From Candidatus Beckwithbacteria bacterium GW2011_GWC1_49_16 (GTDB taxonomy: Bacteria > Patescibacteriota > Microgenomatia > UBA1400 > CG1-02-47-37), in contig CP011210.1 of the NCBI GenBank assembly GCA_001029675.1, forward strand, positions 711,528-775,527: a DNA stretch of 64,000 nucleotides, written 5' to 3'. The first letter of the stretch is position 1. The number at the start of each line of letters is the position of its first letter. The notes under the pieces are model-generated. The model searched no databases, was not told where the DNA came from, and saw nothing but the letters and a program-made list of their open reading frames with translations. A program made the translations under genes and the position numbers. Below, piece after piece: positions 39,092 through 59,083 of the stretch.

Positions 39092-39166
39092 GGCCCCATC
39101 GTCTAACGGTTAGGACGCAAGGTTCTCAACCTTGTAATCCGGGTTCGATTCCCGGTGGGGTCACCA
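39092..39166 (+). tRNA. tRNA-Glu (anticodon CTC)
   Basis: cloverleaf folded by hand: acceptor GGCCCCA/TGGGGTC, D-stem GTCT/GGAC, anticodon stem CAAGG/CCTTG, loop TTCTCAA, T-stem CCGGG/CCCGG with TTCGATT loop, encoded CCA. Confidence 0.85.
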
Positions 39167-40661: not shown

Positions 40662-40766
40662 ACTTTGCTTTTGTACTCTTGTAACATATTGTAACTTGTT
40701 CTTTTAAAAAGTTCTTTAAATATCTACCTTATTAATTTTTGCGTTTTTTCTTCTGTTCTTTTTTTA

Positions 40767-40870
40767 CGGCAACTCCGACCGGACTTAAAATATCCCTTTG
40801 CAGCGCTGTCTGCGGAGGGGGGCGCAGCCAGCGCTGCCCCCAATTCTGCTGCCATTTCCAAAATGGTGAG
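40767..40870. repeat. inverted repeat IR-B, partner of IR-A
   Basis: ...ggcagcgctggctgcgcccccctccgcagacagcgctgcaaagggatattttaagtccgg... in opposite orientation. Confidence 0.85.
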
Positions 40871-40996
40871 CGTTTACGAAAAAATTCGAACCTTTTTTAA
40901 AAATTGTTAACGCATTGCGTCAGCTCCTCGCTCGCCTTCGGCTCGCTTCGTCGCTATTCGCGTTCTGCGCGGCGCCCCCACCCGCCGCGCCTCCGA
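40865..40996. repeat. inverted repeat IR-C (~131 bp), left boundary of cargo segment
   Basis: reverse complement of 48364..48495 essentially identical. Confidence 0.85.
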
Positions 40997-41316
40997 AAAC
41001 TGTCGGCTCGAATCCTAAAGAAAAAACGCAAAAATTTTAAAGAACTTTTTCAATGTCCTATAACTTAAATGGCCGTTCTGGTTGTACTCAACTCGGATTG
41101 CTCCAAATTGTCCAAAACGGCCATTAAAAAAAGCAATCCGAAAAAAGTTGAGTACAATTAAAATATACAAAGTTTCAACATCAAAAACAAGAGTCTCTTG
41201 CATTTGTTTTTTAGCGTGGTATTTGATATAAATATCATAGTACAATAAATCTAGATTTTCGATGATTAAAGTATGATATGCTTAAAGAAAATGCTGTCAA
41301 AATTGGGAGCGCCAAC

Positions 41317-41335
41317 GAGAGAGAGAGAGAGAGAG
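41317..41335 (+). repeat. (GA)9G dinucleotide tract
   Basis: gagagagagagagagagag between an upstream ATG (41273/41291, frame 2) and the in-frame signal peptide of the giant ORF (frame 0). Confidence 0.9.
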
Positions 41336-41636
41336 TAAACGGCTTCGCCGTTTTGTAACAACTTTCCTTCTAATTTTATCTTTACTTCTTCAAAATTTTT
41401 TATTCCTTATTAATCCTGTCTACGCCGCAACTAATTCTTGGGATTTTTCAACTTCGTCTAATTACACTTATGATGATACAAAAATTGAATTTTCTTCGGG
41501 TCAAGCGCAACTAAAAGCAACTTCAAATTGGTACAACACTTCATGGTCAAGGCGTAAAGCAATTACAGTTACAGGTTCTACGGCGGGTGCACAAACAAAT
41601 TATCAACTTAAACTTACAGTACCTTATGATTCGGAC

Positions 41637-44600: not shown

Positions 44601-45725
44601 ATCTTTGGAAAAATAACTGATTCATTATCCGGTGGCGATTCGTCACAAACTCAAGATGAAAACGGGCCAAAAGTTGCCAGTGCTCCTAAAGAAGTAAATA
44701 TTAAGGTGGAGAAAAAAGAAGGATTAACTTACAAGCTTGTAACATTGTACAAGATCAATATGGATAATCCATACTATACTTGCGACCTAAACAAAACTAT
44801 AGATAACTCAAAACAAAAATGCGATAAATATTTGCCTTTTGAATACACACCAAAAGAGATCTTAAATTTAGGGACTTATAAAATAACTCTTTCTGGAAAA
44901 GATAAGGCAGATAACACGTCGTCAGAAACAAGCTTTACTTTAAATATCACCACCCTAGCTCAAATCACTACACCTGAAGAAAAAGAAATTATTGAGGAAG
45001 GAATAAAAGAGTTACCCAAGGAAGAACAGGAAAAAGTAAAAGAAGAACTAGAAATCACTAAACCATCTGAAACACCACAACCAAATATTTTAGAAAAGGC
45101 TAGTCAGGGAGTTGTTAACATAAGCAAAAACATTATTCATGGAGCTGGTAACTTAATTACTACAATATTTACTGGAATTGGTAACGGAATAAGCTTTGTA
45201 TTTAATGGTGTTGGTTCAGGCCTAGCGTTTATGGGTAATACTATTGGGAACAGCTATAGTACTCTTGTTGATCATGCGCCTGGTGTTACCAAAAATATTT
45301 TGTTAGCGGTAGGAACTAATGTTAATAATGCAATCAATGAAGCAAGAAATGGAATCGCAAACCTCGCCTTTAGTATTGGCGAAAAAACAGATGATGTTTC
45401 TCATGGTGTAGGAACCGCGATTATTAAGATCGGTTATCTGTTCGTACCGGAAGCCACCAAAATATCTAACGTTACAGCAGTTGCGCTATCTCCCATGTCA
45501 GTCAGGATAACATGGGAAACAAATCATCCAGCAAACGGCAAAGTAAACTGGGGGTTTGAAGATGGAATATATGAATTTGAGGATCAAACACACAAAAGAA
45601 CCAGTAAGCATGAATTTGTTCTTGAAAATCTCAAACCCGATACTGAATATCATTATGAAGTCATGAGCCAAAACAGAAATTATGTATATGACGCTAACCG
45701 GAAATTTAAAACTCCGGCAAAATAA
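41637..45725 (+). CDS. giant secreted surface protein: DUF2341-like N-region, 5x Asp-box (BNR) sialidase-like propeller, Ig/FN3-like C-terminal domains
   Basis: 1362 aa from first in-frame ATG; open frame extends upstream to 41286 and encodes a signal peptide (FLLILSLLLQNFLFLINPVYA/AT) with no in-frame start: see (GA)n finding; Asp-boxes STNEGASW, STDGGATW, STDNGITW, STDLGQTW, TDNNGSTW. Confidence 0.8.
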   Translation: MQADFDDIRFTSSDGTTLIDHWLESKTDSTTADFWVEIPSIPASPNTTMIYIYYGNSSASSASNGDNTFLLFDNFDGVSMDGFSRVSQQTLFSGSGSEDWLGRTVFVDDGSKWVLVYRQAANHCCDTAAVMHIRFSTNEGASWTNADTFTNGSAVTGAPFSRHSTNAVADPVLMKAPNGDLLLHVGEVNSGGNPMGAYQYRSTDGGATWTDEGLINNDTEIYSGQDYTTVDNDLYAIFWKDAGSDGAPYQTLLYKSTDNGITWALVSPITTSGTDEGGIEYVGSNTLLVVLRDTPASKTYQRISTDLGQTWGTQTDISSSVGVLQRPRMRIFSDEPNRVYLYGRDQLAGNDYTVLYYTDNNGSTWSLKFYPDTTSYADTGYSDVLKQTDGDFYMLSYGGTSGTSSIKEYIFNKSATLQIDTTKWTTDNATTSISNSQLTYQETDTNITWGVVKSVNSVSRPFIAEIDYTLTSGEYAHFMYGPNPDSAQSTANGYVWWIDINDPTNPMQDLTRVEDGTFNDIQRNVQVSPDIANNETFNQKFIFHSTGETALTNGTQYISGSDTTYSSGKIALGTDSGSVVKVNTIKVRVYANPEPTSSIGSEATLYDTSNPTVQPTSANSLTFVSLSAFSETATKNGGQIKYQVSNDSGTTWCWYSSGWTTTSSGYSESNTASDVNTNISTFPVGSGSFLFKAYLNSDGSQLVQLDAIGVTYVADNTPPSISLTALSPDPNTDTTPTLSGTATDTQGTVSNVQFQMDSTSGSWTACTAGDGSFDETTETFTCTPSALSDGSHTMYVRATDSNSNTTSNANASTDSFTIDITTPASFDLDSPGDNSYTNSERPTFKWKATTDATAGLSKYVLEIDNPSIGSGQPSGDFTIDSIPTSRTTDYETNKYTIHYENFSDSDSTNNYISVYTKSHNDWGSSENDGKLREGKVSWKVKAVDNAGNERSSSRTMFMDKTSPSVVFTQINSTPYTTNNFLTTDKTPTIFGKITDSLSGGDSSQTQDENGPKVASAPKEVNIKVEKKEGLTYKLVTLYKINMDNPYYTCDLNKTIDNSKQKCDKYLPFEYTPKEILNLGTYKITLSGKDKADNTSSETSFTLNITTLAQITTPEEKEIIEEGIKELPKEEQEKVKEELEITKPSETPQPNILEKASQGVVNISKNIIHGAGNLITTIFTGIGNGISFVFNGVGSGLAFMGNTIGNSYSTLVDHAPGVTKNILLAVGTNVNNAINEARNGIANLAFSIGEKTDDVSHGVGTAIIKIGYLFVPEATKISNVTAVALSPMSVRITWETNHPANGKVNWGFEDGIYEFEDQTHKRTSKHEFVLENLKPDTEYHYEVMSQNRNYVYDANRKFKTPAK

Positions 45726-45727
45726 AT

Positions 45728-46057
45728 ATGGATAAAATTAATTTAAACAAAGATCAAAAGTTAGTTGTGGACTCTTTCTATAAAGTTAGGACCAAGAAAG
45801 GTTTAAACAGTTTTATTGAGGATTTATTTTCACCGGAAGAAACATTAGATTTAGCCCAACGACTAAAAATCGCTAAGTTAATTCTTGACGGAAAAACTTA
45901 CGAAGAAATTGCGGCAGAAATTCCTGTCAGTACCTCAACCATTTCAAAAATAGGCCAAGTAATTAAATTCGGAAAAGGTGGTTTTATTCTCTTGCAGAAT
46001 AATACAAAAGCACAAAAAGCTAAAAAGCAAAACGGAAAGGAGGTATCAAAAATATGA
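45728..46057 (+). CDS. TrpR/YerC-like HTH protein
   Basis: 109 aa; ...SPEETLDLAQRLKIAKLILDGKTYEEIAAEIPVSTSTISK... Confidence 0.5.
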   Translation: MDKINLNKDQKLVVDSFYKVRTKKGLNSFIEDLFSPEETLDLAQRLKIAKLILDGKTYEEIAAEIPVSTSTISKIGQVIKFGKGGFILLQNNTKAQKAKKQNGKEVSKI

Positions 46058-46428
46058 TTAACTTAGAATTTCAAATTTATCATTTACTAACAGGGCTTGC
46101 CGGAGGATTAGTTCGTGGATTAGTTGGAATAATGAAACAAACCCAGAAACCGGACGAGTTTAAAATTCATTGGAAATATTTTGGTTTAACCATGTTAGTT
46201 TCAGGAGTTGTTGGGGTAGTGTCAGGAATTATTGCTGATGGCGATTGGAGAATATCGTTACTTGCCGGATACGCTGGCACTGATTTTCTGGAAAGTCTTT
46301 ACAGATTAAGATTCCCTCAAATGTTCAGTATTGCTCAAACCGTTAAAACGGTAACAGAAGAAAGTAACACCGGAAAAGTAACAACACAAACAACTACGCC
46401 AGTAACAGCACCAGTAGTGACAAAATAA
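46054..46428 (+). CDS. small 2-TM membrane protein (holin-like topology)
   Basis: 124 aa; two TM helices, Thr/Val-rich tail. Confidence 0.35.
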   Translation: MINLEFQIYHLLTGLAGGLVRGLVGIMKQTQKPDEFKIHWKYFGLTMLVSGVVGVVSGIIADGDWRISLLAGYAGTDFLESLYRLRFPQMFSIAQTVKTVTEESNTGKVTTQTTTPVTAPVVTK

Positions 46429-46433
46429 AAAAA

Positions 46434-47585
46434 CTAGAAGTGGTAGATAGTGGCTTTGCCTTTTCCTTCAGTTTTGATTGTTCCTCGTTCTACTAAATCT
46501 TCTAGGTAATTAGTCGCGGTGCTTTGGGAAACATGAAGTAATTCTCTTACATCATCATTGTTGATTTGTTTTTTCACTTCAATTAGTTTTTCGATCTTCA
46601 TTAAATTTTCTTCCCGCTTTGTTTGTCTGGCGTGATTAGCTTTTAATCTTCTAGCTTCCAACTCTGTATTTAATTTGTCATCAACCCGTTGTTGAATTTC
46701 CTCATCACTGACCTGTGGAGCTTGAGGAACTTGGGGTTTTTCTGCTGGTTTTTCCGGCTCAATGTTGATTGTTGGTTCTGGTTGCGGAATAACTGGTTCC
46801 GGTTTTGTTTCTTCTGGCAGTTTTTGTTCTTCAATTGGCGGAGTTTGAACAGGTGGTGTCTCTGTCGTTTCTTGTTTTGGTTCCTCTTTTTGAGATGGTA
46901 AAGAAAGATAAGGAGAAGGATCAATAAAACCAAGGTAACCATTTGCTAAATCGGGATTGTTTGGTTTGATTGCAAAATGTAAATGTTCGCCAAAAGCGGC
47001 ACCCGATGAACCGGATAAACCAATAACTTTGTTAATTCCAATCTCATCGCCTTCTTTGACTTTTGTTTCTTGAAGATGTCCATAAATTGATTGTCCCCAG
47101 GAATGTTGAATTGTGATTGATGTTCCAAAATCGCCATTATCTCCAGACTGAATAACTTTTCCAGAATCACAAGGAAAAACTTCATTTCCGGCAGATAAAC
47201 CAAAATCTAAACCGTTATGTCCAACAATTCCCCACTCCTGAAGTTTCTTTTTAATTTTTTCGTTGGCTGATTGCTGGCCAAAAGAAAAAGTAACCGGAAA
47301 ATTACCGGAGAACGGATAATGTAAAGCGGGAATGTTAATAATCGGCGGAGAAACAGGAGGTACGCTTTCTGTCGGTGGTGTTTCTGTTATTGTTTCGGCG
47401 GGTTGTGGCATTTCTGCTGTTGGTGTTACAGTCGGGGGTGTTTGTGTTTGCTCTGGTGTTGCTTGTACCGGTGGAGTTTTCATCGGCGGATGGTCAGTCG
47501 AAGGAATCACTGGATTTGTTGTTTCCGTTGTTGTTTGGTTTTGGTCTTGGGGAATATCATCAGCCATATATAAACAGTGTATCAA
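46434..47585 (-). CDS. M23 (LytM-type) metallopeptidase with Pro/Thr/Glu linkers and C-terminal winged-HTH
   Basis: HNGLDFG...HLHF M23 His motifs; C-terminal ...DVRELLHVSQSTATNYLEDLVERGTI... wHTH; no obvious signal peptide. Confidence 0.75.
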   Translation of the reverse strand: MIHCLYMADDIPQDQNQTTTETTNPVIPSTDHPPMKTPPVQATPEQTQTPPTVTPTAEMPQPAETITETPPTESVPPVSPPIINIPALHYPFSGNFPVTFSFGQQSANEKIKKKLQEWGIVGHNGLDFGLSAGNEVFPCDSGKVIQSGDNGDFGTSITIQHSWGQSIYGHLQETKVKEGDEIGINKVIGLSGSSGAAFGEHLHFAIKPNNPDLANGYLGFIDPSPYLSLPSQKEEPKQETTETPPVQTPPIEEQKLPEETKPEPVIPQPEPTINIEPEKPAEKPQVPQAPQVSDEEIQQRVDDKLNTELEARRLKANHARQTKREENLMKIEKLIEVKKQINNDDVRELLHVSQSTATNYLEDLVERGTIKTEGKGKATIYHF

Positions 47586-48363
47586 AATGGGACAAGGAAA
47601 TCTTTTGTCTTCTTCTCTTGTTTTTCTTTTTGTTGTTGGCGGCTCCCCCGCCCCCGCCCCGTTGAGAACACAAAGCTAAAAAGGAGGGAACGCGACAGAA
47701 AACCATCGAAGGAGTACAGCCTTTCAAAGAGCGTTCCCGACTAACGCGAGCCCGCAAAGATTTACTTTGTTTTAAAAGAAACCAGCGGGCGAGCCCATCG
47801 AGAGTCATCGCGCAGGGCGCTAAAATAAAAAAGCGCGAAGCGCTTAACCTTAAGCGGGCGCGCAAGCCCTGATAAAACAGGAAGGGGTACAAATAAAGAA
47901 GGCGGGGGCGAAAAAGCGGATACCCCAGAACGCGCGAGCCTTAAAAGTCAAAACAAAAGATGAGCCCCGCTCGCAAGCGGGGCGAGGGACGCGCAGTAGG
48001 AACTCTTAGAAAAGTAAAGCCGTTGTCGCAACCCGCCCCTAGGCGGGTCAGCGCGCGATGAATGGGGTCGCCGCCAACAATTAATCGGGAGGGTGGGTTG
48101 ATACGGAATACAGAATAACCATTTAAACTTTAGTCATGTAGTCTTGTACACTTCTACAAAAGCAAAGTATCTACAGAGGGGCGGGAAACCGCCGGAAGGA
48201 ATTTTGATCTTGTTCTTCCGTTTGGCTTGGCGAGAACCAAAAAAGTGGTGGAACCGGAAGTTTTGTGCTTGGAATCGGCCAATTTCCACCATTTTGGCCG
48301 ATTCATTTGTGGTATTATAGGGAAAGCGGAAGCTTTCCAAAAATCGCGCGCGCAAAAAATGAG

Positions 48364-48495
48364 CGGAGGCGCGGCGGGTGGGGGCGCCGCGCAGAACGCG
48401 AATAGCGACGAAGCGAGCCGAAGGCGAGCGAGGAGCTGACGCAATGCGTTAACAATTTTTAAAAAAGGTTCGAATTTTTTCGTAAACGCTCACCA
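48364..48495. repeat. inverted repeat IR-C', partner of IR-C; ends in TCACCA core (attR-like)
   Basis: as above; followed by aattttgcc resembling sequence after tRNA. Confidence 0.85.
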
Positions 48496-48562
48496 AATTT
48501 TGCCACTAAAAAATCCCCTGCTTTTTTAAACCAATGGTGATTTAAGGGTATGAAGCTAAAAG

Positions 48563-48847
48563 TTATTGCTGTTGACCGAAGCCTCCGCCGTCTTGTCTGG
48601 GAGGCCGGGCGACGTCGACCCTTAAGGGCCGGCCGTCGAGATCCTGGCCGTCAAACATTTCTTTAGCTTTTTGCATTTCCTCGGGGGTTGACATGGTTAC
48701 GAAACCAAAACCCTTGGAACGCCCGGAGGCTTTGTCGGTGATGACGATAGCATCAGTGACAGTACCGGCCTGGGAAAAATGCTGCTTTAATTGATCGGTG
48801 GTAACTGTGTAGGATAAGTTGCCTACGTAAAGTTTGTTGTTGTCCAT
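48563..48847 (-). CDS. RRM-type RNA-binding protein (glycine-rich tail)
   Basis: 94 aa; RNP2 LYVGNL, RNP1 KGFGFVTM. Confidence 0.8.
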   Translation of the reverse strand: MDNNKLYVGNLSYTVTTDQLKQHFSQAGTVTDAIVITDKASGRSKGFGFVTMSTPEEMQKAKEMFDGQDLDGRPLRVDVARPPRQDGGGFGQQQ

Positions 48848-48975
48848 TAATTAATTCACCACCCTTCAAGAGGGTAAATATTAGAGGAAATTAGAGCAAA
48901 ATGGGAAGGGTGCATGAGGTGGAAGAAGTGGGGGTTTTTTAATCTGTCCTTCTGATTATAAAGCAAACTCAAAAA

Positions 48976-50385
48976 CTAGCAAGAGGCAGTTGGGCAGTAG
49001 AGGTTAAAGGTGGCTACCGGGTGGAGAAAGGCGTCCAAGAAGCTGGGGCGGGAGACGACGGTGAAATGGGTGACAAACTTGTCGCCGAAAACTAGCCCGT
49101 CTTTTTGAAGCTGAAGCGACAGGTTATATTCGCCGGGAACGTCCGGAGTAGCGACAACCAAGTTAAGCTTGGCTTCCGCAAATGGTTCGGTAACGGGTAG
49201 AGGGCTGACGGAGATTGACCCTGCCGGCAAGTTGGTGGCAAAATTCAAGCTATAGTTTTCTTTATCCCAGATCGACTGACCCAAGTTTTTTATTTTGAAG
49301 GAAAAGGCGTAGTGGTAGTCGACGACCAACTTGTCGGGCAAGACGGCGTCGGCAAATTGACCGTAGTGGATTTGTTCCGGGTCGCCGGCGGGTTTGTCTA
49401 AGTTTTTGACGGCCTCAAACTGGGGGTAAAAACTTCCCTCCGGCTTTTGCCAGGAAAACCGACCAAAAGGATCCTGGGGGTAATTTAAAACAAAAGGGGT
49501 GACGGCGACGACCCGAGGATCCTGCCAGATTTGAGTGAAGGCGGTGGTAAAGTAGTCGGCGACGGCCTGGGGGGTGTGGGCGCCCAAGACTTTTTCCTGG
49601 TTGTGGGCCCAGCCGGTTTCGGTGATAAAAACCGGTAAGTTGGGGCCGACGCCGAAACGGGAGAGATAGTTTAGCTCGGATTTAAAACTCTCGACCGAAC
49701 CAAGACCGGTAGCGGCGGGCGAGCCGGAAAAATCAGGGTTGGGGTAAGAATGGGAGGTCCAGCCGTCAAAATGGGTAAAAAAATTGGGGTCGTAATCAAA
49801 CGCCCAGGAAAGGTAGGTAAGTAAAGTCATGGTCGAGGCGGAGTCGGGGGCGGCGGCGTCTAGCCCCGCCGGCAGAACGAAAAAATCATCAGAGGCGGCT
49901 TTAAGCTCCCGGCTAAAGGCGGCGGCCACGGCCACGTATTCTTCGGGTTTGACTTCCCCGCCCCATTCTTGGGCGTGGTTGGGCTCGTTGAATAAAACAA
50001 CGTAGCGATTCTTGACCACCCAGTTTAAGGAGTTTAAAAACTGGCTCCAGGCGACGGCATCTTCGGGACGGGGTTTGGCCCAGCCGCCGTCTTCGGCGTG
50101 GGTAGCCAGCCTTACCAGAGGGATGAGGCGGTAGCGACGGAGAGAATCAAAGATTTCCTGCCACTTGGCAACATCTCTATCGCCGTCCTCGATGACTAAG
50201 GTGACGTAACCCCAAGTGCCGCCGGAGCTGTTGACCAGCTTGGCGGCGGCGGGGATGTCACCTTCACTCAAGATGTGAATGCCGTAAAGGTTGTTGGGAG
50301 AAGACAAAGGCGAGACGACGGCGTGGGCGCCAGCCGGAAAGAAAATGAGGGCCAGGGCAATAAAAAACAAGATAAGCTTTTTCAT
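48976..50385 (-). CDS. secreted clan GH-A glycoside hydrolase (GH5-like)
   Basis: start set at MKKLILFFIALALIFFPAGAHA signal peptide; NEP (VVLFNEPNH) acid/base and ITETGW nucleophile motifs. Confidence 0.6.
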   Translation of the reverse strand: MKKLILFFIALALIFFPAGAHAVVSPLSSPNNLYGIHILSEGDIPAAAKLVNSSGGTWGYVTLVIEDGDRDVAKWQEIFDSLRRYRLIPLVRLATHAEDGGWAKPRPEDAVAWSQFLNSLNWVVKNRYVVLFNEPNHAQEWGGEVKPEEYVAVAAAFSRELKAASDDFFVLPAGLDAAAPDSASTMTLLTYLSWAFDYDPNFFTHFDGWTSHSYPNPDFSGSPAATGLGSVESFKSELNYLSRFGVGPNLPVFITETGWAHNQEKVLGAHTPQAVADYFTTAFTQIWQDPRVVAVTPFVLNYPQDPFGRFSWQKPEGSFYPQFEAVKNLDKPAGDPEQIHYGQFADAVLPDKLVVDYHYAFSFKIKNLGQSIWDKENYSLNFATNLPAGSISVSPLPVTEPFAEAKLNLVVATPDVPGEYNLSLQLQKDGLVFGDKFVTHFTVVSRPSFLDAFLHPVATFNLYCPTASC

Positions 50386-50496
50386 CGGAAAGGCAATTAT
50401 AACACCTTGTGGACCGGCTTGATTTTCAAGGGGGTTGCGGTATAATGCGGCTTTACTGATTTTAAATTGCCCGGTGAGGCGTATCCGGCGATTTTT

Positions 50497-50961
50497 ATGG
50501 TTCAAGTAAATTTTCATTTCACCAGCGAAGGCTTAAAAGAGCTTAAAAACGAGCTGAGGAAGTTAACCGAAGAGAAACGGCCGCGGCTGATTAAACGAGT
50601 CACCGTGGCCAGAAGCCACGGGGATTTGTCGGAAAACAGCGAGTACTCGGCGGCACGCGAGGACTTGGCGTTTGTGGACGGCAGGATCGAGGAACTTGAG
50701 GGTCTGATTGCCAAAGCCAAAATAATCAGAAACAAAGGCGGCAACCACGAAGTCAAACTCGGGTGCCGGGTAACGCTTAAAGTGGGCCGGAAAGAGGAAA
50801 CCTTTGAAGTGGTGGGCGAATGGGAAGCCGACCCTTTGAAACAAAAAATCTCCCACACCTCGCCTTTGGGCCAAGCCTTACTGGGCAAGAAGAAGGGTGA
50901 CAGGGTGGAAATTGACGCCCCGGCCGGGAAGCTGACTTATCACATTCAAAAGGTCCACTGA
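50497..50961 (+). CDS. greA: transcription elongation factor GreA
   Basis: coiled-coil N-domain + FKBP-like C-domain (GDRVEIDAPAGKLTYHI); start set at MVQVNF... Confidence 0.85.
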   Translation: MVQVNFHFTSEGLKELKNELRKLTEEKRPRLIKRVTVARSHGDLSENSEYSAAREDLAFVDGRIEELEGLIAKAKIIRNKGGNHEVKLGCRVTLKVGRKEETFEVVGEWEADPLKQKISHTSPLGQALLGKKKGDRVEIDAPAGKLTYHIQKVH

Positions 50962-51124: not shown

Positions 51125-51919
51125 ATGTCCAATAACAACTTAATGCGAATGTTTGAAAATCGGTTTTTGCCGATTGCTGCTATGTTAGTTAATAATCACT
51201 CTCTGTCTGTGGATATTATTAATAAACCCAAGTTTGTAGATAGCATTAAAAATCTAGAAGAGTTGGTGCTGGATCGTAGATTTGATGCCATAGCAACTGA
51301 AGTATTTTCGCGGAAAAATTACCAGTCAATGGCGGAAAAAATAAGGTCGATAGACACTTTGTACGAAATTTTTCTAGAAACAAAGGCAGTGCTTGATTTG
51401 CTTGAGAACAAACAAGAGTTAAAAAACAATTTCCATCTGATGAGAGACTACCAAACTGCAAAAATGGAGGGGGAAATGGGGAGTTTTGACCGACACTCAA
51501 AAGTGGCTTTTGTGGGTAGTGGCCCATTTCCTTCAACCGCGATTGCCTACCATCGAACCTTTGGCTGTCAGATAACTGGCGTTGATTACAATCCTGAAGC
51601 AGTAATGCTGGCTGATAAAATGTTAAATCGTCTTGGACTCGAAGGATCGATTTGGTCAGTTTCCTGTGCTGGAGAAGATTTTGACTACTCCGGATTTAGT
51701 CATGTGGTTTTAGCAGGGATTGCCGAACCTAAAGAAGAAATTCTTGAGCAAATTTATCAAACCACCAATAGCAACATAAGAGTTGTGTCCAGAACCACAG
51801 ATGGGCTAAGACAGTTCTTCTACAAACCAGTAAAAGAAACAGGAAATTTTATACAGGTAGATAAAGTTGTAGACGAAAATAATATTTTCTACTCGATACT
51901 ACTAGTACCTAAAAATTAG
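51125..51919 (+). CDS. nicotianamine-synthase-like (NAS/CntL-family) protein
   Basis: 264 aa; KVAFVGSGPFPSTAI matches NAS signature (KVAFIGSGPLPLT). Confidence 0.6.
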   Translation: MSNNNLMRMFENRFLPIAAMLVNNHSLSVDIINKPKFVDSIKNLEELVLDRRFDAIATEVFSRKNYQSMAEKIRSIDTLYEIFLETKAVLDLLENKQELKNNFHLMRDYQTAKMEGEMGSFDRHSKVAFVGSGPFPSTAIAYHRTFGCQITGVDYNPEAVMLADKMLNRLGLEGSIWSVSCAGEDFDYSGFSHVVLAGIAEPKEEILEQIYQTTNSNIRVVSRTTDGLRQFFYKPVKETGNFIQVDKVVDENNIFYSILLVPKN

Positions 51920-51923
51920 CGTT

Positions 51924-52961
51924 ATGAACAGGTTAAAAGTGGTGATTATTTTTGGCGGCAGATCAGTGGAACATGAGGCTTCGGTAATCTCTACTAGGTC
52001 AATCATGAAGTTTATTAATAGGCAAAAATATGAGGTGATCCCGATTGGTATTACTGTTGGGGGTCTCTGGGTGGAGACTAACGAGGCCGATAAGTTTTTA
52101 AACTCTAAGAAAAAGCTTCTGGTTGATAGAGGTAGTCGATTTAATCAGATTCCGAAAATATTACAGAGTCTACCTAAAAATACTGTAGTTCTCCCTTTAA
52201 TGGAGTGTACTACAGGTGAAGATGGGGTGATTCAGGGATTTCTAGAGCTTGATGGGCTGCCTTATGTCGGCACCGGCGTTTTTGGTTCGGCTTTGTGTAT
52301 TGATAAAGTTAAACTCAAAGAAATTCTTCAGTTTCATAATCTACCGGTAGCGCCGTTTTACTGGTTTAGAACTACAGACAAGCTAGATACTAAATTAGTA
52401 AATAACTTTCCATTATTTGTAAAACCAGCTAGATTAGGGGGCAGCATAGGGATTTCGAGAGTGAACAACAATGATGAACTTCAAATAGCTGTTAGGCTGG
52501 CTAGCCAATATGATAATAAAATCATTGTTGAAAACGGTCTGGATGATATTCGCGAAATAGAGGTTTTAGTGGTGGGCAACAACTCCCCTAGGTGCTTTAT
52601 TATTGGTGAGGCTATAACTAACAACAAATTTCAAGATTATGAAGCAAAAAGCCAAGAACAAAGACAACTAGTAGCGCCGGCAAAATTAAGCACCAAAATT
52701 AAAAACAGAATTAAAAGAGCGGCGATAAAAGCTTATCAAGTTAGCAACTGCGCTGGTTATGCTAGAGTTGATATCTTTCTACGAAAAGAGGGGGATAAGT
52801 TTTGGGTTGGTGAAATAACTACTAAGCCAAGCTTTAATAAAACTGAAAGCTACCTAAAGGCTGCCGGGAGGTTAGATGAATATCAGGGATTAATTAACCA
52901 GCTAATCCAACTGGCTGTTGAAATGTGGCAGAAAAAACAGCGGCTAAAAACTAGTTTATAA
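51924..52961 (+). CDS. ddl: D-alanine--D-alanine ligase (ATP-grasp)
   Basis: 345 aa; KVVIIFGGRSVEHEASVISTRSI N-terminus and ATP-grasp core. Confidence 0.75.
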   Translation: MNRLKVVIIFGGRSVEHEASVISTRSIMKFINRQKYEVIPIGITVGGLWVETNEADKFLNSKKKLLVDRGSRFNQIPKILQSLPKNTVVLPLMECTTGEDGVIQGFLELDGLPYVGTGVFGSALCIDKVKLKEILQFHNLPVAPFYWFRTTDKLDTKLVNNFPLFVKPARLGGSIGISRVNNNDELQIAVRLASQYDNKIIVENGLDDIREIEVLVVGNNSPRCFIIGEAITNNKFQDYEAKSQEQRQLVAPAKLSTKIKNRIKRAAIKAYQVSNCAGYARVDIFLRKEGDKFWVGEITTKPSFNKTESYLKAAGRLDEYQGLINQLIQLAVEMWQKKQRLKTSL

Positions 52962-52968
52962 TAAGATT

Positions 52969-55275
52969 ATGTTCTGGGCGGATAAACTGGCTAGCGACAT
53001 CGTCAAATCGGGCAAACATAAACCCTTGTGGGTGGACGACATGAAGACGCCCTCGGGAAGAGTCCACGTGGGGGCGTTGCGCGGGGTGGTGGTTCATGGT
53101 CTTGTTTACCAGGCTTTGATCAAAGAAGGGCAAAAAGCGACTTATTCGTATGTCATCAACGACATGGACCCGATGGATGGCTTTCCTAACTATCTGCCGA
53201 TTAAGTTTAAAAAGCACATGGGAGAACCGTTGTTTAAAATCCCCTCTCCGGAAAAGGGTTACCAGTCAATGGGACAAGCTTACGGCCAGCAGTTTATCGA
53301 CACTTTTAACCGGTTGGGATTTAAACCCAAGATTATCTGGTCGAGCCAGTGGTATAAGCAGGGCAAGTTTGACGCGGTGATTAGACAGGTGCTTGATCGG
53401 GTGGATTTGGTCAGAAAACTTTACCATGATATCTCCGGCTACGATAAGCCGAAAAGTTGGTATCCGTATCAGGTGATTTGTCCCCAGTGCGGCAAGGTGG
53501 GGACGACCATCGCCACCTCCTGGGACGGGAAAAAGGTCGGCTACGAGTGCAAAAAGGATTTGGTCGTCTGGGCCGAAGGCTGCGGCCACAAAGGCGAGGT
53601 CGAGCCGAAGGGACTAGCCGGCAAACTGATGTGGAAAGTAGACTGGGCGGCTCACTGGAAGGTAATCGGGGTGACGGTTGAGGGCGCCGGCAAAGACCAC
53701 ATGAGTCAAGGTGGTTCGTATGATTTATCCAGCGCCATTTGCGAAAAAGTTTTAGATTATCCCAAACCGTTTGCCTTTCTTTATGAGTGGTTTTTGGCTA
53801 AAGGCGGCAGTAAGATGAGCTCGTCGCGGGGCATCGGGGTGTCGGCGAGCCAAATGGCCGAGACTCTGCCGCCGGAAATCTTGCGCTTTTTGCTGGTCAA
53901 AACTCCCTACCGTAAAGCGATTATCTTTGATCCGAATAACAACGAGACGGTGCTCAATCTCTTTGACGCCTATGACCAGGCGGCTGAAGCCTACTTTAAC
54001 AAGAGCGACCCGCTACTCGCCCGGGTATTTGAGTTGTCTCAACCGAGCGGCAAGACCCCCAAAAAAATATTTTTACCTCGCTTTCGCGACGTGGTTAAGT
54101 TGTTGCAAGACCCGAAAGTGGACGAAAAAGAAAAGTTTGCCGAGATTAAAGGAGGCAAGTTGACGCCGGCAGAAGAGCGCGAACTTGAAAGGCGAGTTAA
54201 GTACGCCAAGATTTGGCTTAGTGAGTACGCGCCGGAAGAACAAGTGTTTCAGATGACCAAAATTCTGCCGGAGACGACAGCCACGCTCTCGGCTGAACAA
54301 AAAACCTACCTTCAAACCATCGTCAAAGTTTTAGATAAGGACTGGCAGGACGCTGACCAGTTGCAACAGGAGCTGTATCAAACAGCCAAAAAAATGAAAC
54401 TGGTCGCTGGTGACGCTTTCGGAGCGATCTATATTTCCCTTCTCAATAAAAGCCACGGCCCCAAAGCCGCCTGGCTGATTTTAGACGAAGGAAAAGACAA
54501 GGTTGCCAACAGGCTTAAGCAGGCAGCCGAGTACCAAGTCGCAGAGGTAAGGGTCGCCGAGTCCAAATACCCGGTAATCAAAGCGCCTAAGTTTGTCAGC
54601 ATTAATCCTGACATGGCCAAGGCTTACCCGTCGATTAAAGTGGCTATGGCTGTCATCCGGGGAGTTAATAATAAGGTCGATAACGACCGGTTCGTCACTT
54701 ACCGCAATCAAGTAGTTGATAGCCTTAACGGGATTACCTTAGACGACATTAGCGCTTCAAGGAAAATCAGCTCCTACCGCAAAGCGATTCGGGAAAGCGG
54801 CATCGACTGGCACAAAAGAAGGCCGACGATGGAGGCGTTACTGCGGCGCGTGGCCCAAGGGAAGCAGCTTTACTGGATTAATCCCCTGGTGGATATCGGC
54901 AACTTGATGGCGATGAAACACCAAGCCAGCCAGGGAGTCTTTGACCTTGACCAAGTTAAACTACCGGCGATAATGAGAAAATCAGGAGGCGGCGAAAAGG
55001 TTTTGATGCTGGGAGATACCAAACCGATCACTTTGCAAAAAGGCGAGATTTGTTATTTTGATAGACAAGGCCCGTTTATCGTCGATCTGTGCTGGCGCGA
55101 CGCTAAGCGGACCGGGGCGACCGAAAAAACCCGCGACGTGATGTTTTTATCCGAGGCGGTTTATGACATCAGCCGGAAAGACCTTGATGACGTTCTGGAC
55201 GATCTTATCGCCACGGTGACCCGCTACTTGGGAGGTAAAGTCGAAACAGCTGGTATTGTTACGGCAAACAAGTAA
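52969..55275 (+). CDS. lysK: class I lysyl-tRNA synthetase fused to C-terminal B3/4-like domain
   Basis: HIGH-like HVGALRG, KMSKS-like KMSSSRG, Zn-binding CPQCG...C; C-terminal ~230 aa with VDIGN...FDLD...GE...D..GP pattern of PheT B3/4 domain. Confidence 0.8.
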   Translation: MFWADKLASDIVKSGKHKPLWVDDMKTPSGRVHVGALRGVVVHGLVYQALIKEGQKATYSYVINDMDPMDGFPNYLPIKFKKHMGEPLFKIPSPEKGYQSMGQAYGQQFIDTFNRLGFKPKIIWSSQWYKQGKFDAVIRQVLDRVDLVRKLYHDISGYDKPKSWYPYQVICPQCGKVGTTIATSWDGKKVGYECKKDLVVWAEGCGHKGEVEPKGLAGKLMWKVDWAAHWKVIGVTVEGAGKDHMSQGGSYDLSSAICEKVLDYPKPFAFLYEWFLAKGGSKMSSSRGIGVSASQMAETLPPEILRFLLVKTPYRKAIIFDPNNNETVLNLFDAYDQAAEAYFNKSDPLLARVFELSQPSGKTPKKIFLPRFRDVVKLLQDPKVDEKEKFAEIKGGKLTPAEERELERRVKYAKIWLSEYAPEEQVFQMTKILPETTATLSAEQKTYLQTIVKVLDKDWQDADQLQQELYQTAKKMKLVAGDAFGAIYISLLNKSHGPKAAWLILDEGKDKVANRLKQAAEYQVAEVRVAESKYPVIKAPKFVSINPDMAKAYPSIKVAMAVIRGVNNKVDNDRFVTYRNQVVDSLNGITLDDISASRKISSYRKAIRESGIDWHKRRPTMEALLRRVAQGKQLYWINPLVDIGNLMAMKHQASQGVFDLDQVKLPAIMRKSGGGEKVLMLGDTKPITLQKGEICYFDRQGPFIVDLCWRDAKRTGATEKTRDVMFLSEAVYDISRKDLDDVLDDLIATVTRYLGGKVETAGIVTANK

Positions 55276-55558
55276 GTTTATGTTTCCGATTTTGTTTTTT
55301 ATCAGTCTAGGAATTTTTTTAGGAGTTTTTCTCCAGTTTAAACGCCGGCGGATTATTGCCTGGGTAGATAAAGTGGTAGTATTTACCGTTTACATTTTAT
55401 TGTTTCTTCTAGGAATAAACATAGGTGGTAACGAAGAAATTGTTGCCAGCCTAGGCACTATTGGATTTCAGGCACTGCTAATAGCATTGGCGGGAGTCGC
55501 TGGTAGCATACTCTCTGCCTATATTTTGAGTAGGCTTATATTCAACCATGAAAACTAG
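55256..55558 (+). CDS. LysO/YbjE (DUF340) family membrane protein, N-terminal piece
   Basis: 100 aa, 3 TM. Confidence 0.5.
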   Translation: MLRQTSKFMFPILFFISLGIFLGVFLQFKRRRIIAWVDKVVVFTVYILLFLLGINIGGNEEIVASLGTIGFQALLIALAGVAGSILSAYILSRLIFNHEN

Positions 55559-56153
55559 CTTGCAGTTGTTTGCCGTTTTTATTCTTGGTCTAATTTTAGG
55601 TTATTACGAATTGGCTCCGGAATTTTTAATCAACAATGGCCTAGTGGAATACGTTTTATACGTGATGCTGTTTTTTGTGGGCGTATCTATGGGGCAAGAT
55701 AAAAAAGCTTGGGGTGTTGTAAAAAAACTTAAGGCAAAAATTTTCTTGGTACCGGCAGGTACTGTATTAGGCACATTTATAGGGGCAGTTGTGGTAAACA
55801 CTTTGATTAAGGACTTGCGGTTTATCGAGGTGGTAACCGTTGCCGCTGGCATGGGTTACTATAGTCTACCTAGCGTAATTTTAAATCAGCTTGGATTTGA
55901 AGTTTTGGGCGTTTTGGCACTACTGACTAACTTATTCAGAGAAACTATTACTTTATTAACCACGCCAATTCTGGCTAAATATTTTGGTAAGCTTTCCCCT
56001 ATCGCGGCAGGAGGGGCAACTACATCTGATGTAACACTACCGGTAATTGTTGAATTTACTGGTAAGCAATACGGGGTAATCGCTATTTTTAACGGAGTGG
56101 TGATAACTATTTTAGTACCGTTTATGGTTACGGCTTTGGCTTCATTGCTGTAA
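55548..56153 (+). CDS. LysO/YbjE (DUF340) family lysine-exporter-like membrane protein
   Basis: 201 aa, 6 TM, DUF340-like. Confidence 0.55.
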   Translation: MKTSLQLFAVFILGLILGYYELAPEFLINNGLVEYVLYVMLFFVGVSMGQDKKAWGVVKKLKAKIFLVPAGTVLGTFIGAVVVNTLIKDLRFIEVVTVAAGMGYYSLPSVILNQLGFEVLGVLALLTNLFRETITLLTTPILAKYFGKLSPIAAGGATTSDVTLPVIVEFTGKQYGVIAIFNGVVITILVPFMVTALASLL

Positions 56154-56167
56154 AATATTTTATATAC

Positions 56168-56944
56168 ATGATTAAACGCGACGAGCTGACGAAGTTTATT
56201 TACCAAACCATCGGCGAGGGATTGATGACCAAGGCCTTGGAAAAAGACGAGGTGGCCAACGGGGTGCAGTTTTTGGGTGGCGAGGAAGTAAAGAAGGTAG
56301 CCCTGGGAGTAAGCTTGAATGAAGATTGGTTGAAAGAGGCGGCCAAAGCAGGCGCCCAGTATTGTGTTTTTCATCACGGCTTTGACACCAGAACCTGGAA
56401 GTCGCGCTTCCCCACCTTTGGCCAAAAAAGATTGAGACTGATGGTTAAAAATAACTTCACTATCGCCGGATTTCACTACACTCTTGACGCCCACCCGACG
56501 CTGGGAAACAACGCCACCATCATCCGCGAGCTCGGCGCCGAGATCGACCAGCCTTTGTACGACGAGTGGGGTTATACGGCCACTTTTAACCACCCCCAAG
56601 ACGTCAAAGAGTTACAGCAAAAGTGCGCTAGGCTTTTTAGCCACGATATTTTGGCGGTACTATCCGGACCCGAAAAAGTGACCACCATCGGCGTCGTCTC
56701 CGGTGCCGGCAAACCGGCAATGGCCGAGATTGCCGAGATGGAAGCCAAAGGAGTGGAGCTTTATATCTCTGGTGAAACCAGCGAGTGGCTGATCCACCAA
56801 ATGAAAGAGTCGGAAATTAACTATTTTTGCGGCGGGCATTACGCCACCGAGGTCTTTGGGGTGCAGGAGCTGGGCAAGTCGATCAAAAAGAATTATCAGG
56901 ACAAACTGGAAGTCGAATTCATCGACATCCCAAACCCGATCTAA
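56168..56944 (+). CDS. Nif3-family dinuclear-metal-centre protein
   Basis: 258 aa; VFHHG, TLDAHP, GGHYATE motifs. Confidence 0.8.
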   Translation: MIKRDELTKFIYQTIGEGLMTKALEKDEVANGVQFLGGEEVKKVALGVSLNEDWLKEAAKAGAQYCVFHHGFDTRTWKSRFPTFGQKRLRLMVKNNFTIAGFHYTLDAHPTLGNNATIIRELGAEIDQPLYDEWGYTATFNHPQDVKELQQKCARLFSHDILAVLSGPEKVTTIGVVSGAGKPAMAEIAEMEAKGVELYISGETSEWLIHQMKESEINYFCGGHYATEVFGVQELGKSIKKNYQDKLEVEFIDIPNPI

Positions 56945-56987: not shown

Positions 56988-57266
56988 ATGAAAAAGGTAA
57001 CTGCCGACGAAATGCGCTGGCAAGTTAGCCAGCTGAAGAAAGATAAATTAGTTTACGCGGTGGAGTCGGCCGCGGTGTCTCTGGTGGTGATGGTCTTGAT
57101 CTTCGGACTGGGCATCGCCCTGCCGATTGTCGGCCTTTACGCCCAAACGGTGATGAGGCTACTTTTGATCATTGCCGTGGGCTACTTTTTGTACATGGCG
57201 GCGGGTAACACCAAAAGGTGTTTAAAAATCCGCAAGCTCGAGAGAATGCTTGATGACCAGGGATGA
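56988..57266 (+). CDS. small 2-TM membrane protein
   Basis: 92 aa; preceded by AT palindrome and AAGGAGG SD. Confidence 0.35.
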   Translation: MKKVTADEMRWQVSQLKKDKLVYAVESAAVSLVVMVLIFGLGIALPIVGLYAQTVMRLLLIIAVGYFLYMAAGNTKRCLKIRKLERMLDDQG

Positions 57267-57807
57267 AGCTTTAGCGCTGGTCAGCGGCTGGACCAAGAAC
57301 CAGAACTTAATCAAGCACATGCTGGCGGTAGAGGCCCAGATGCGGGCTTTGGCCAAGCATTTTAGGGAAGACCCGGAGCAGTGGGGCTTGGCAGGGCTAA
57401 TCCACGACGCCGACTATGACCAGTGGCCCGAATCACACCCCCAAAAAACTCTGGACGAACTTCAGAAACGGGGCGAGCCTGGTTGGCTGACCGACGCGGT
57501 CCGAAGACACGCTTGGGGCTATCACGGTTTTAAAGAAGAGCCGGAAACTAAACTTGAGTGGTCGCTTTACTGCTGTGACGAGCTCTCTGGCCTGATTATC
57601 GCCTGTGCCCTGGTAAGACCCGATAAAAAGTTAGCCTCGGTTGAGGTCGATTCTGTGTTAAAGAAATGGAAGAAAAAAGACTTTGCCGCCGGCGTCCATC
57701 GGGAACAGATCGAGTTGTGCGAAGAGAAACTTGGGATTAAGCTTAATGATTTTATCGGTATTTGTCTTCAGGCTTTACAGGGGATAGCGGGTGATTTAGG
57801 GTTATAA
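57250..57807 (+). CDS. HD-domain phosphohydrolase
   Basis: H...HD (GLIHDADY) metal-binding motifs. Confidence 0.7.
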   Translation: MMTRDEALALVSGWTKNQNLIKHMLAVEAQMRALAKHFREDPEQWGLAGLIHDADYDQWPESHPQKTLDELQKRGEPGWLTDAVRRHAWGYHGFKEEPETKLEWSLYCCDELSGLIIACALVRPDKKLASVEVDSVLKKWKKKDFAAGVHREQIELCEEKLGIKLNDFIGICLQALQGIAGDLGL

Positions 57808-57817
57808 TAAGGAATCT

Positions 57818-59083
57818 ATGTTAGACATTGCTTTTATTCGCGACAATGCAGCGGCAGTCAAAAAAGCGGCTAAAGACAAAGGGCTTGAGCCGGCGCTGGT
57901 TGATAAGGTACTTGAGGCTGACAAGAAGAGGCGTGAGTTAATCGGTAAAGTTGATGAGTTACGGCAGGAAAAAAACCAGCTGACCGAGAAAGATAGAGAC
58001 AAGGGAAAGAAAATCAAAGCAGAACTCAAGAAGCTTGAACCGGACTTAAGAAAAGCAGAGGCCGAGTTTGAAACGACGCTAAAACAAATCCCCAATCCGG
58101 CGGCTGACGACGTCAAGGTGGGCAAAGACGAAAATGACAACGAGGTGGTTAGAAATTGGGGTGAAAAAACAAAATTTGACTTTAAAGCCAAAGAACACCT
58201 GGAATTGGGTGAGGCTTTGGGGATGATCGATACTAAGAGAGCGGCTAAAGTGTCCGGAGCCAGGTTTGCCTATTTGACCGGGGACGCGGTGCTGTTGGAA
58301 CTGGCCTTGGTGAATTTGGCTATGGAAACTCTGATCAAAGAGGGCTTTACGCCGATAGTCCCGCCGGTTCTAATGAAAGTGCCGGTATTTCATGACTTGG
58401 GCTATTCGGAACATTTAGGTAACGAAAACTACTATTATGTCGCCGGCGACCCGGATAAGAAAAACCAAGGCGAGGAGGAAGAAGGTTACTATTTGGTGGG
58501 TACGGCTGAACACTCGATCGTGCCTTTTTACAAAGACGAGGTCCTGTCTGCTTTTGACCTACCCAAAAGATTTGTCGGTTTTTCCTCGGCCTTTCGGCGC
58601 GAGGCCGGCTCCTACGGCAAAGACACCAAGGGAATTTTGCGAGTCCACCAGTTTGACAAAGTGGAAATGGTGTCTTTTGCCCGCGCCAGCGAAAGCGACA
58701 AGGAACACGAATTTCTTTTGGGTTTAGAAGAAAAGCTTTTTCAGGCCTTAAAAATCCCCTATCAGGTAGTGAAGATGTGTACCGGAGATTTGGGAGCGCC
58801 GGCGGCCAGAAAGTATGACCTCGAAGCCTGGCTGCCGGGACAAGGAAAATACCGCGAAGTCACCTCAACTTCAACTTGTACCGATTTTCAAGCCAGAAGA
58901 CTAAACATTAAATATCGAGAGGGCGATAAACTAAAGTACGCTCACACTCTAAACGGCACCGCTTTGGCCATCGGCCGGACGATAATTGCCATCATGGAAA
59001 ACTACCAGGCTAGTGACGGGTCGGTTGAAGTGCCTGAAGTGTTAAAAAAATATCTCAATAAAGATGTTATTTCAAAAGGTTAA
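57818..59083 (+). CDS. serS: seryl-tRNA synthetase
   Basis: 421 aa; N-terminal coiled-coil arm, class II motifs (FRREAGS, GTALAIGRTI). Confidence 0.9.
   Translation: MLDIAFIRDNAAAVKKAAKDKGLEPALVDKVLEADKKRRELIGKVDELRQEKNQLTEKDRDKGKKIKAELKKLEPDLRKAEAEFETTLKQIPNPAADDVKVGKDENDNEVVRNWGEKTKFDFKAKEHLELGEALGMIDTKRAAKVSGARFAYLTGDAVLLELALVNLAMETLIKEGFTPIVPPVLMKVPVFHDLGYSEHLGNENYYYVAGDPDKKNQGEEEEGYYLVGTAEHSIVPFYKDEVLSAFDLPKRFVGFSSAFRREAGSYGKDTKGILRVHQFDKVEMVSFARASESDKEHEFLLGLEEKLFQALKIPYQVVKMCTGDLGAPAARKYDLEAWLPGQGKYREVTSTSTCTDFQARRLNIKYREGDKLKYAHTLNGTALAIGRTIIAIMENYQASDGSVEVPEVLKKYLNKDVISKG

Follow-up and report, generated by a model that had tools for sequence, protein, structure and literature searches.

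Why does a class I lysyl-tRNA synthetase (LysRS) continue for almost 250 residues past its normal end, and what does the added segment do? We addressed this question at the LysRS gene of Candidatus Beckwithbacteria bacterium GW2011_GWC1_49_16, which lies in a 64,000-nucleotide (nt) stretch of DNA (assembly GCA_001029675.1, contig CP011210.1, positions 711,528 to 775,527 of the forward strand). This stretch is called the window here, and positions are counted from its first letter. An initial annotation had described a class I core of unusual length, a C-terminal B3/4 domain of the PheT type that could anchor tRNA or edit, and a split LysO exporter downstream. It had also proposed B3_4 and tRNA-synt_1f profile searches, structure prediction of the C-terminal region and a survey of the fusion. 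We find that the extension is a complete B3/B4 protein related to the deacylase CtdA (an enzyme that clears canavanine, a toxic mimic of arginine, from tRNA), that the same module is attached to LysRS of both classes, and that it is probably a post-transfer editing deacylase for mischarged tRNA-Lys. The open reading frame (ORF) is organized as follows.

52969-55275, + strand: LysRS-B3/4 ORF, class I LysRS with a CtdA-like B3/B4 module; 768 amino acids plus stop, uninterrupted (Pfam, NCBIfam).
52969-54534, + strand: LysRS1 body, residues 1-522; Rossmann catalytic domain and helical anticodon-binding domain (TIGR00467, PF01921, PF19269).
54535-54588, + strand: linker, residues 523-540; poorly conserved, with no column conservation and low predicted local distance difference test (pLDDT) scores.
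54589-55272, + strand: predicted CtdA-like B3/B4 aminoacyl-tRNA-deacylase module, residues ~541-768 (PF03483, profile, AlphaFold2 (AF2), Foldseek).

The synthetase body is that of a class I LysRS. A deposited 'lysine--tRNA ligase [Candidatus Beckwithbacteria bacterium]' matches the 768-residue product at 100% identity. Residues 1-518 match the NCBIfam equivalog for class I LysRS (TIGR00467, lysS_arch) with 353.5 bits against a curated cut-off of 147.55. Pfam tRNA-synt_1f (PF01921) covers residues 2-359 (E 2.5e-90) and Anticodon_2 (PF19269) residues 437-519. Both signature motifs named in the initial annotation are present: the HIGH-like HVGALRG at residues 33-39 (nt 53065-53085) and the KMSKS-like KMSSSRG at residues 282-288 (nt 53812-53832). 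Within them, H33, G35, K282, M283, S284, S286 and G288 do not vary across 60 fusion proteins. That the ORF encodes a working class I LysRS, with predicted charging activity, is the best explanation of these matches. Since unfused relatives do not continue past the equivalent of residue 521-523, the extension is ~246 residues long, which bears out the earlier estimate of about 250. In the full-length AF2 model (mean pLDDT 92.2, predicted template modelling score (pTM) 0.66) the sole disordered stretch is residues 525-530, with pLDDT below 50. A pTM of 0.66 beside a pLDDT of 92.2 points to two rigid bodies of uncertain relative position, joined in the model by a flexible tether.

The extension itself matches Pfam B3_4 (PF03483) over residues 604-732 with E 1.2e-18 and 67.8 bits, well above the gathering cut-off of 29.3. 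Both profile families proposed for this protein are thus matched, and the motifs first read as B3/4 are all in place (VDIGN, residues 641-645; FDLD, residues 658-661), as is FDRQGP (residues 697-702). An AF2 model of residues 530-768 gives a confident B3/B4 fold (pLDDT 91.8, pTM 0.89). When a profile built from 15 diverse C-terminal extensions (alignment A1) was searched against the PDB, CtdA came first (9mkl, 7.7e-9; 9f7e, 1.8e-8) and PheT chains followed from 3.5e-7. Structure comparison with Foldseek gave the same order. The module model superimposes on CtdA 9f7e and 9mkl with template modelling (TM) scores of 0.80-0.86 (E 1e-16 to 1e-17, 230-239 alignment columns) and on PheT B3/B4 with a TM score of ~0.58. 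The structural alignment with CtdA carries ~17-18% identity. The extension is therefore a whole B3/B4 protein of the free-standing type (~230 residues) and not a PheT fragment, and it is nearer CtdA than PheT. The B3/4 fold of the initial annotation stands; its PheT assignment does not.

Does the module retain a catalytic pocket? The aminoacyl pocket of CtdA is formed by N105, G116, E118, C166, Q173 and I189 (PMC12449066). The enzyme is inactivated by N105A, G116H/W and Q173G, and C166 tunes its specificity for canavanine (Can) versus Arg (PMC12449066). We transferred these positions to the Beckwithbacteria protein through hidden Markov model alignments. The equivalents are, respectively, N645 (nt 54901-54903), G656, F658, I704, D711 (nt 55099-55101) and L727. 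Four of the six, N645, G656, F658 and D711, are 100% invariant in a set of 104 and in a set of 60 fusion proteins, although mean column identity is just 51-56%. Overall, 17-19 of 239 columns are invariant, so that four of six at the pocket is an enrichment (hypergeometric p ~3e-4). A further position, D706, is 93% conserved and stands for CtdA R168, while position 704 is Ile in the Beckwithbacteria protein and Asn in most relatives.

The same positions separate the module from both of its characterized relatives. The LysRS-attached family has F in place of CtdA E118, N/I in place of C166, D in place of both R168 and Q173, and N/L in place of I189. Glu118, Cys166 and Gln173 (Glu173 in C. perfringens), the conserved specificity residues of CtdA, are thus absent. 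The pocket is not PheT-like either, because His265 and Gly318 (E. coli numbering) correspond to Gly656 and Asp711, and the equivalent of R244 is missing (Y635). With N645, G656, F658 and D711 invariant, it appears from the alignments that the catalytic framework has been kept and that the specificity positions have been swapped for a conserved, family-specific set. The LysRS-type module may equal or adjoin the uncharacterized 'CtdA-2' clade, which also lacks C166.

If the module serves lysine decoding, to which synthetases is it attached? An exhaustive profile search of 1.84 billion representative proteins returned 4445 proteins at E up to 1e-3. It superseded a word-indexed search in which the C-terminal domain, as sole query, had found one protein. 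Architectures were resolved by local BLAST and Pfam/NCBIfam scans for the best 150 of the 4445 together with two added references. Within that set, 28 proteins are class I LysRS followed by B3/4 and 15 are class II LysRS followed by B3/4. All of the latter are lysS_bact, two with an extra HD domain and one with DUF2000. B3/4 stands in front of ArgRS in eight proteins, of class II LysRS in two and of class I LysRS in one, and ~98 proteins, some of them fragments, consist of B3/4 only. The top match of the profile, which was derived from class I fusions, is a class II fusion (P0122, E 6.6e-104).

Pocket sequence follows the synthetase partner in most of the fusions, with exceptions. The signature [SG]xG[AGV]FD...D[FLY]NYRD is found in the C-terminal fusions of class I and of nearly all class II LysRS, while PxG[GA]E[DN]...CRRWNWR[QE] occurs in the N-terminal LysRS fusions and in most ArgRS fusions, as in CtdA itself. 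By identity, the domains attached to class I and class II LysRS interleave (P0122/P0126, 66%; P0143/P0141, 54%; P0152/P0150, 49%). Eight ArgRS proteins with N-terminal B3/4 were seen (P0156, P0195, P0217, P0225, P0230, P0255, P0258 and P0261), and most keep the CtdA-type pocket (CRRWNWRE). This agrees with the known activity of CtdA on Can-tRNA-Arg, and on their sequences these proteins are candidates for a built-in canavanine filter. Further domains also occur in the LysRS fusions: P0132 and P0140 carry DUF2000 behind the LysRS-type B3/4, and in P0142 an EMAP/YtpR-like tRNA_bind domain lies between the LysRS body and B3/4.

Across Microgenomates-type Patescibacteria the fusion is common. With the whole protein as query, 104 of the best 120 homologues had B3_4 and a length of 720-1077 residues, and the other 16 lacked it and had ~520 residues, which answers the question of spread that the initial annotation had raised. 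Named sources are Beckwith-, Pace-, Roizman-, Gottesman- and Woesebacteria, Microgenomates and CPR3. We also scanned one genome per GTDB species with alignment A2, which represents the majority subtype; 141 relatives were found and 80 loci kept, a set that under-samples the 'DIGN...CWRD' subtype of the Beckwithbacteria protein itself. In 80/80 loci the B3/4 coding region lies directly behind a LysRS body, of class I in 76/80 and of class II in 4/80. Gene order is conserved as GreA - LysRS-B3/4 - (NIF3) - HD - SerRS. By tblastn over 81 loci, GreA is upstream of LysRS in 44/81 and SerRS downstream in 49/81. In the window the flanking members of this block are as follows.

50467-50961, + strand: GreA, upstream anchor (tblastn; Pfam in loci L083 and L084 of relatives).
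56168-56944, + strand: NIF3/DUF34 gene (PF01784, E 1.3e-41); directly behind LysRS in L083 and L084.
57818-59083, + strand: SerRS, downstream anchor (tblastn; also in loci L083, L084 and L086).

The four class II loci in the species-level scan (L030, L032, L036 and L062) encode body and B3/4 as a single ORF of 733-743 codons. The class II LysRS-B3/4 ORFs of relatives, in the coordinates of each locus, are these.

L030, 368-2590: class II LysRS-B3/4 ORF.
L032, 1241-3469: class II LysRS-B3/4 ORF.
L036, 5483-7711: class II LysRS-B3/4 ORF.
L062, 5507-7705: class II LysRS-B3/4 ORF.
L086, 4619-6781: class II LysRS-B3/4 ORF.

In L030, L032 and L036, the three with detectable flanks, the class II fusion fills the GreA-LysRS-HD-SerRS slot, which sister lineages occupy with the class I version, and on the contig of P0122 it is likewise found in this arrangement. 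Judged from these sequences, the catalytic body has been swapped in place between class I and class II, ahead of a retained accessory domain. Because B3/4 was kept through the exchange of unrelated bodies, its function would be tied to lysine or tRNA-Lys and not to the scaffold of the enzyme.

The only close relative in the first search that seemed free-standing, P0121, proved to be a frameshift-split LysRS fusion and was discounted as a free-standing form. In locus L001 (468-2691), LysRS-B3/4 is divided into ORFs of 480 and 263 residues with an 11-nt overlap, and the LysRS alignment is lost past ~residue 453. The apparent stand-alone B3/4 gene in this locus results from a frameshift or an error of assembly. 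Genuine stand-alone relatives exist (P0157, P0173), and their contexts are short and uninformative.

What would such a module do for a LysRS? All characterized B3/B4 enzymes, the PheRS editing domain and CtdA, hydrolyse mis-aminoacylated tRNA (PMC12449066, PMC11415595). Among the products of E. coli LysRS are tRNA-Lys species mischarged with Arg, Thr, Met and other amino acids, which the enzyme cannot deacylate (PMC5370406). The known editing by LysRS is pre-transfer cyclization of homocysteine, homoserine and ornithine (PMC5370406). With B3/B4 enzymes deacylating mischarged tRNA, and with the known LysRS editing confined to the pre-transfer stage, we therefore propose that the module is a post-transfer editing domain for tRNA-Lys. 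We consider this the probable function, and of the two functions first suggested for the extension it is editing that the CtdA-like fold and invariant pocket best support; anchoring becomes a rival.

The proposed pathway would run as follows. The synthetase body charges tRNA-Lys, and the flexible 3' CCA end, when it carries a wrong amino acid, would enter the B3/B4 pocket, either without leaving its enzyme molecule or once released. Hydrolysis of the ester bond there would be assisted by the conserved Asn645. Correct Lys-tRNA-Lys would be rejected by the remodelled pocket, in which Phe658, Asp706, Asp711 and Asn/Ile704 take the places of Glu118, Arg168, Gln173 and Cys166. A pocket attached to LysRS would be freed from sparing arginine, which would account for the disappearance of the Can/Arg discriminators (C166, Q173 and E118) and for the two Asp and one Phe gained. 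Lined by acidic and aromatic residues, the pocket points to a substrate with a cationic side chain. Leading candidates, named speculatively, are arginyl or guanidino analogues, or other non-cognate cationic residues, on tRNA-Lys, with thialysine, oxalysine and ornithine as alternatives.

Several points weigh against the editing function. The domain is dispensable: fused and unfused LysRS cores are equally close to the Beckwithbacteria core (60-67% identity), and the unfused relative P0073 has the matching gene order with no B3/4 gene inside the 15.6-kb locus examined. Similar cores with and without B3/4 in one gene order show that the domain is gained or lost dynamically. The need for editing is also weakened by reports that class I LysRS is rather selective and, for example, does not charge ornithine (PMC8001834). 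The substrate assignment given above is a guess. The Beckwithbacteria subtype, SQGVFD...GPFIVDLCWRD, differs from the majority at the equivalents of C166 and I189. Three N-terminal LysRS fusions and a C-terminal class II fusion (P0224) have the CtdA-1-type pocket, so the correlation of pocket with synthetase is not absolute. Finally, some proteins of the B3/B4 fold, such as the Foldseek match LRRC47, may be non-catalytic RNA binders.

This last point bears on the strongest rival, in which the module is a non-catalytic anchor that raises the affinity of a small-genome LysRS for tRNA-Lys, in the manner of appended domains on other synthetases. Some proteins of this fold do bind RNA or ribosomes, as LRRC47 does on the 40S subunit; the bona fide tRNA_bind domain of P0142 indicates that tRNA-binding additions are made to these synthetases; and close relatives do without the domain. 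However, the invariant residues are those of the CtdA aminoacyl pocket, including the Asn that is essential in CtdA, and a protein that binds the RNA backbone would have no need of a conserved small-molecule pocket. Nor would it need pocket types that differ largely between the domains attached to ArgRS and those attached C-terminally to LysRS. We regard anchoring as unlikely, and editing as the reading that accounts for the pocket.

Could the genes downstream of LysRS reveal the function? Two ORFs of the LysO family follow directly.

55280-55558, + strand: small LysO-family subunit; 92 amino acids from the likely start, ATG 55280 (the mechanical ORF from TTG 55256 has 100 amino acids).
55548-56153, + strand: large LysO-family subunit, 201 amino acids (PF03956); its first 11 nt are shared with the end of the small-subunit gene.

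Both ORFs match PF03956 (Lys_export; cut-off 23.8 bits), the 201-residue ORF with E 3.6e-60 and 203.2 bits over profile positions 2-189 of 190 and the 100-residue ORF with E 5e-10 and 39.6 bits. They are collinear with one E. coli protein, because the small ORF aligns to residues 1-58 of E. coli LysO (E 2.7e-4) and the large one to residues 108-295 (30% identity, E 5e-17), where the Pfam domain of the E. coli protein spans residues 113-297. E. coli LysO (YbjE) is a single polypeptide of 299 residues, whereas the Beckwithbacteria form consists of two overlapping genes (92/100 and 201 residues) at 21-30% identity. The large subunit is 36-37.5% identical to Bacteroidota proteins annotated 'lysine exporter LysO family protein'. 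In Parabacteroides distasonis (RefSeq), a 92-residue 'LysO family transporter' overlaps a 208-residue 'lysine exporter LysO family protein', and the same pair of products lies under the match in Bacteroides finegoldii. The two-gene form is therefore a regular arrangement and not a broken gene. The pair is best explained, on these alignments, as an ordinary two-subunit exporter of the lysine/thialysine type (predicted). A metagenome scan with the large subunit found no relatives, and a word-indexed search with the small ORF returned only itself.

It would be attractive to join these genes with LysRS-B3/4 in a single operon for lysine homeostasis or defence against lysine antimetabolites, in which the exporter removes analogues and editing clears those that are mischarged. 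Packing on the same strand is tight: ATG 55280 falls 4 nt past the LysRS stop, the two subunits overlap by 11 nt, and 14 nt separate them from NIF3. E. coli lysO, moreover, is annotated in RefSeq as an L-lysine/thialysine exporter. Against this, LysO stands beside LysRS-B3/4 in 0/81 related loci and is absent from the locus of the closest relative (L083), in which NIF3 starts at 9306, 1 nt after LysRS ends at 9304. Conserved linkage of LysRS and LysO is rejected on these loci, and the pair is therefore a lineage-specific insertion. In other lineages the intergenic slots hold other cargo, and two-gene LysO is found without LysRS in Bacteroidota. The split exporter of the initial annotation is thus real, and the genomic link it remarked on is not conserved. 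We consider the joint operon improbable. The exporter may still cooperate with the proposed editing enzyme in handling lysine or its analogues, outside the conserved system.

A neighbour with a broader connection to LysRS is the HD gene.

57250-57807, + strand: HDIG/HD-domain protein, 185 amino acids (PF01966, TIGR00277).

This protein shares 38% identity with the HD domain that stands behind B3/4 in the class II LysRS proteins P0135 and P0142 (E 6e-38 and 5e-34). An HD gene lies downstream of LysRS-B3/4 in 28/81 loci, mostly immediately adjacent, and it stays beside LysRS where B3/4 is absent. The link may therefore be to LysRS and not to B3/4. The best solved matches of the family are YqeK-type Ap4A hydrolases, weakly so (E 0.0013). 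These relations could be taken to mean that the module has another hydrolytic or regulatory role, either deacylating cognate Lys-tRNA-Lys to tune charging or acting with the HD protein on aminoacyl-adenylate or dinucleoside polyphosphates. The fusion of orthologous HD domains, and of DUF2000 in further class II LysRS proteins, would fit such a role. We find it very improbable: the characterized B3/B4 enzymes all act on mis-aminoacylated tRNA, the HD gene adjoins LysRS even without B3/4, and the similarity to YqeK is marginal. The HD protein is a candidate functional partner and an unexplained lead.

Least probable of all is a conventional CtdA function, in which the module would deacylate canavanyl-tRNA-Arg in trans and would be joined to LysRS merely, for example, to be co-regulated or kept near the tRNA pool. 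In its favour, no solved structure is closer than CtdA, the modelled flexible linker would permit action in trans, and the N-terminal LysRS fusions and P0224 do have a CtdA-1-type pocket, but E118, C166, R168 and Q173 are replaced by F658, I/N704, D706 and D711, the true CtdA-type pocket is on the ArgRS fusions instead, and one subtype has been kept across class I/class II switches, which ties the module to lysine or tRNA-Lys.

Several other features of the window were noted. Between GreA and LysRS (51125-52961, + strand) lie a nicotianamine-synthase-like gene of methyltransferase fold (264 amino acids) and a D-Ala-D-Ala-ligase-like ATP-grasp gene (345 amino acids), which may be a pair for small-molecule biosynthesis. 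L083 lacks both, and L084 has an unknown gene and an M20 peptidase in this gap. The gap looks like an insertion hot spot, and the two genes look like a lineage insertion of the LysO kind. Between NIF3 and the HD gene (56988-57266, + strand) is a predicted membrane protein of 92 amino acids with no Pfam match, not present at that position in L083 or L084. An ORF of 513 amino acids on the opposite strand (48976-50517, - strand), whose start overlaps the GreA ORF, has an apparent N-terminal signal or hydrophobic segment and gave no Pfam match at E up to 1e-3. At gathering thresholds, Rfam gave tRNA-Glu only in the whole window; neither an L-box nor a T-box precedes the LysRS operon. The 3' end of this tRNA-Glu(CTC) gene (39092-39166) is overlapped by a large serine recombinase gene (39126-40661, - strand). 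Next to the recombinase, within 39092-48900, is a stretch of low GC content (36-42% versus ~50%) that encodes a 1362-residue surface-type protein (DUF2341/BNR/Big_13) and an M23 peptidase. Positions 39092-48900 are probably an integrated element, and no att-like direct repeat was found for this island at tRNA-Glu.

Three things are added to the initial annotation: class II LysRS and ArgRS also bear the domain, the GreA-LysRS-(NIF3)-HD-SerRS block is conserved, and there is a candidate HD-domain partner. No description of LysRS or ArgRS fusions to B3/B4 was found in the full-text literature searched, which lacks subscription journals, and the CtdA papers (including PMC10018355 and PMC12449066) contain no mention of LysRS, 'fused' or 'fusion'. 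The architecture is visible in databases through Pfam calls and appears to have gone uninterpreted. What appears new is that LysRS and ArgRS carry a known deacylase fold as a dedicated addition, its pocket remodelled. In the reviewed literature, LysRS edits at its catalytic site only and ArgRS is not listed among the editing synthetases (PMC11415595, PMC5370406). If our proposal is right, the module would be the first post-transfer editing domain for LysRS. It would be bound to lysine decoding and kept while the class of LysRS in front of it was swapped at one chromosomal position, an unusually clean case of non-orthologous displacement. It would also give a first function to the uncharacterized non-CtdA-1 (non-canavanine) branch of the CtdA family, and the CtdA-type copies would supply ArgRS with a built-in filter for canavanine or its analogues. 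If active, the module would extend the small set of editing domains that synthetases are known to have, and would reveal the translation errors that are of consequence to ultra-small scavenging bacteria. The wider proposal is that bacteria of the candidate phyla radiation (CPR) have a cis-editing system for basic amino acids, with a CtdA/B3-B4 clade dedicated to tRNA-Lys and a CtdA-type filter on ArgRS. This we put forward tentatively, rating it a little below an even chance.

How does the fusion compare with known systems? Canonical class I LysRS of the archaeal and spirochaete type (TIGR00467, ~520 residues) is matched end to end by residues 1-522. It ends at ~residue 520 without an editing domain, whereas the Beckwithbacteria protein has 246 extra C-terminal residues. 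With CtdA (Hauth et al. 2023, PMC10018355; Maldonado et al. 2025, PMC12449066) the module has in common the whole B3/B4 fold of ~230 residues, including the CtdA-specific helical insert. CtdA is also its best sequence-profile match, and the ALLRR/ALRKR helix, the essential Asn (N105/N645) and the pocket Gly (G116/G656) are kept. In contrast, CtdA is free-standing and deacylates canavanyl-tRNA(Arg), while the Beckwithbacteria module is fused behind LysRS and is not an ArgRS partner. The editing domain of PheT has in common with it PF03483, the core of the fold, the location of the pocket, the VDxxN motif and the Asn (N254/N645). Its helical inserts differ from those of the LysRS-attached module; it sits among domains B1, B2 and B5-B8 and edits Tyr- and m-Tyr-tRNA-Phe, whereas the LysRS fusion has no other PheT domain. 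More generally, ThrRS N2/ThrRS-ed, AlaRS/AlaX, ProRS INS/ProXp and PheRS B3/B4/CtdA all follow one pattern, in which a deacylase fold occurs both fused and free-standing and its specificity is diversified through the pocket (PMC11415595). In the reviewed literature those editing synthetases do not include a LysRS or ArgRS with a dedicated post-transfer domain; LysRS and ArgRS of the CPR type are both predicted to carry one.

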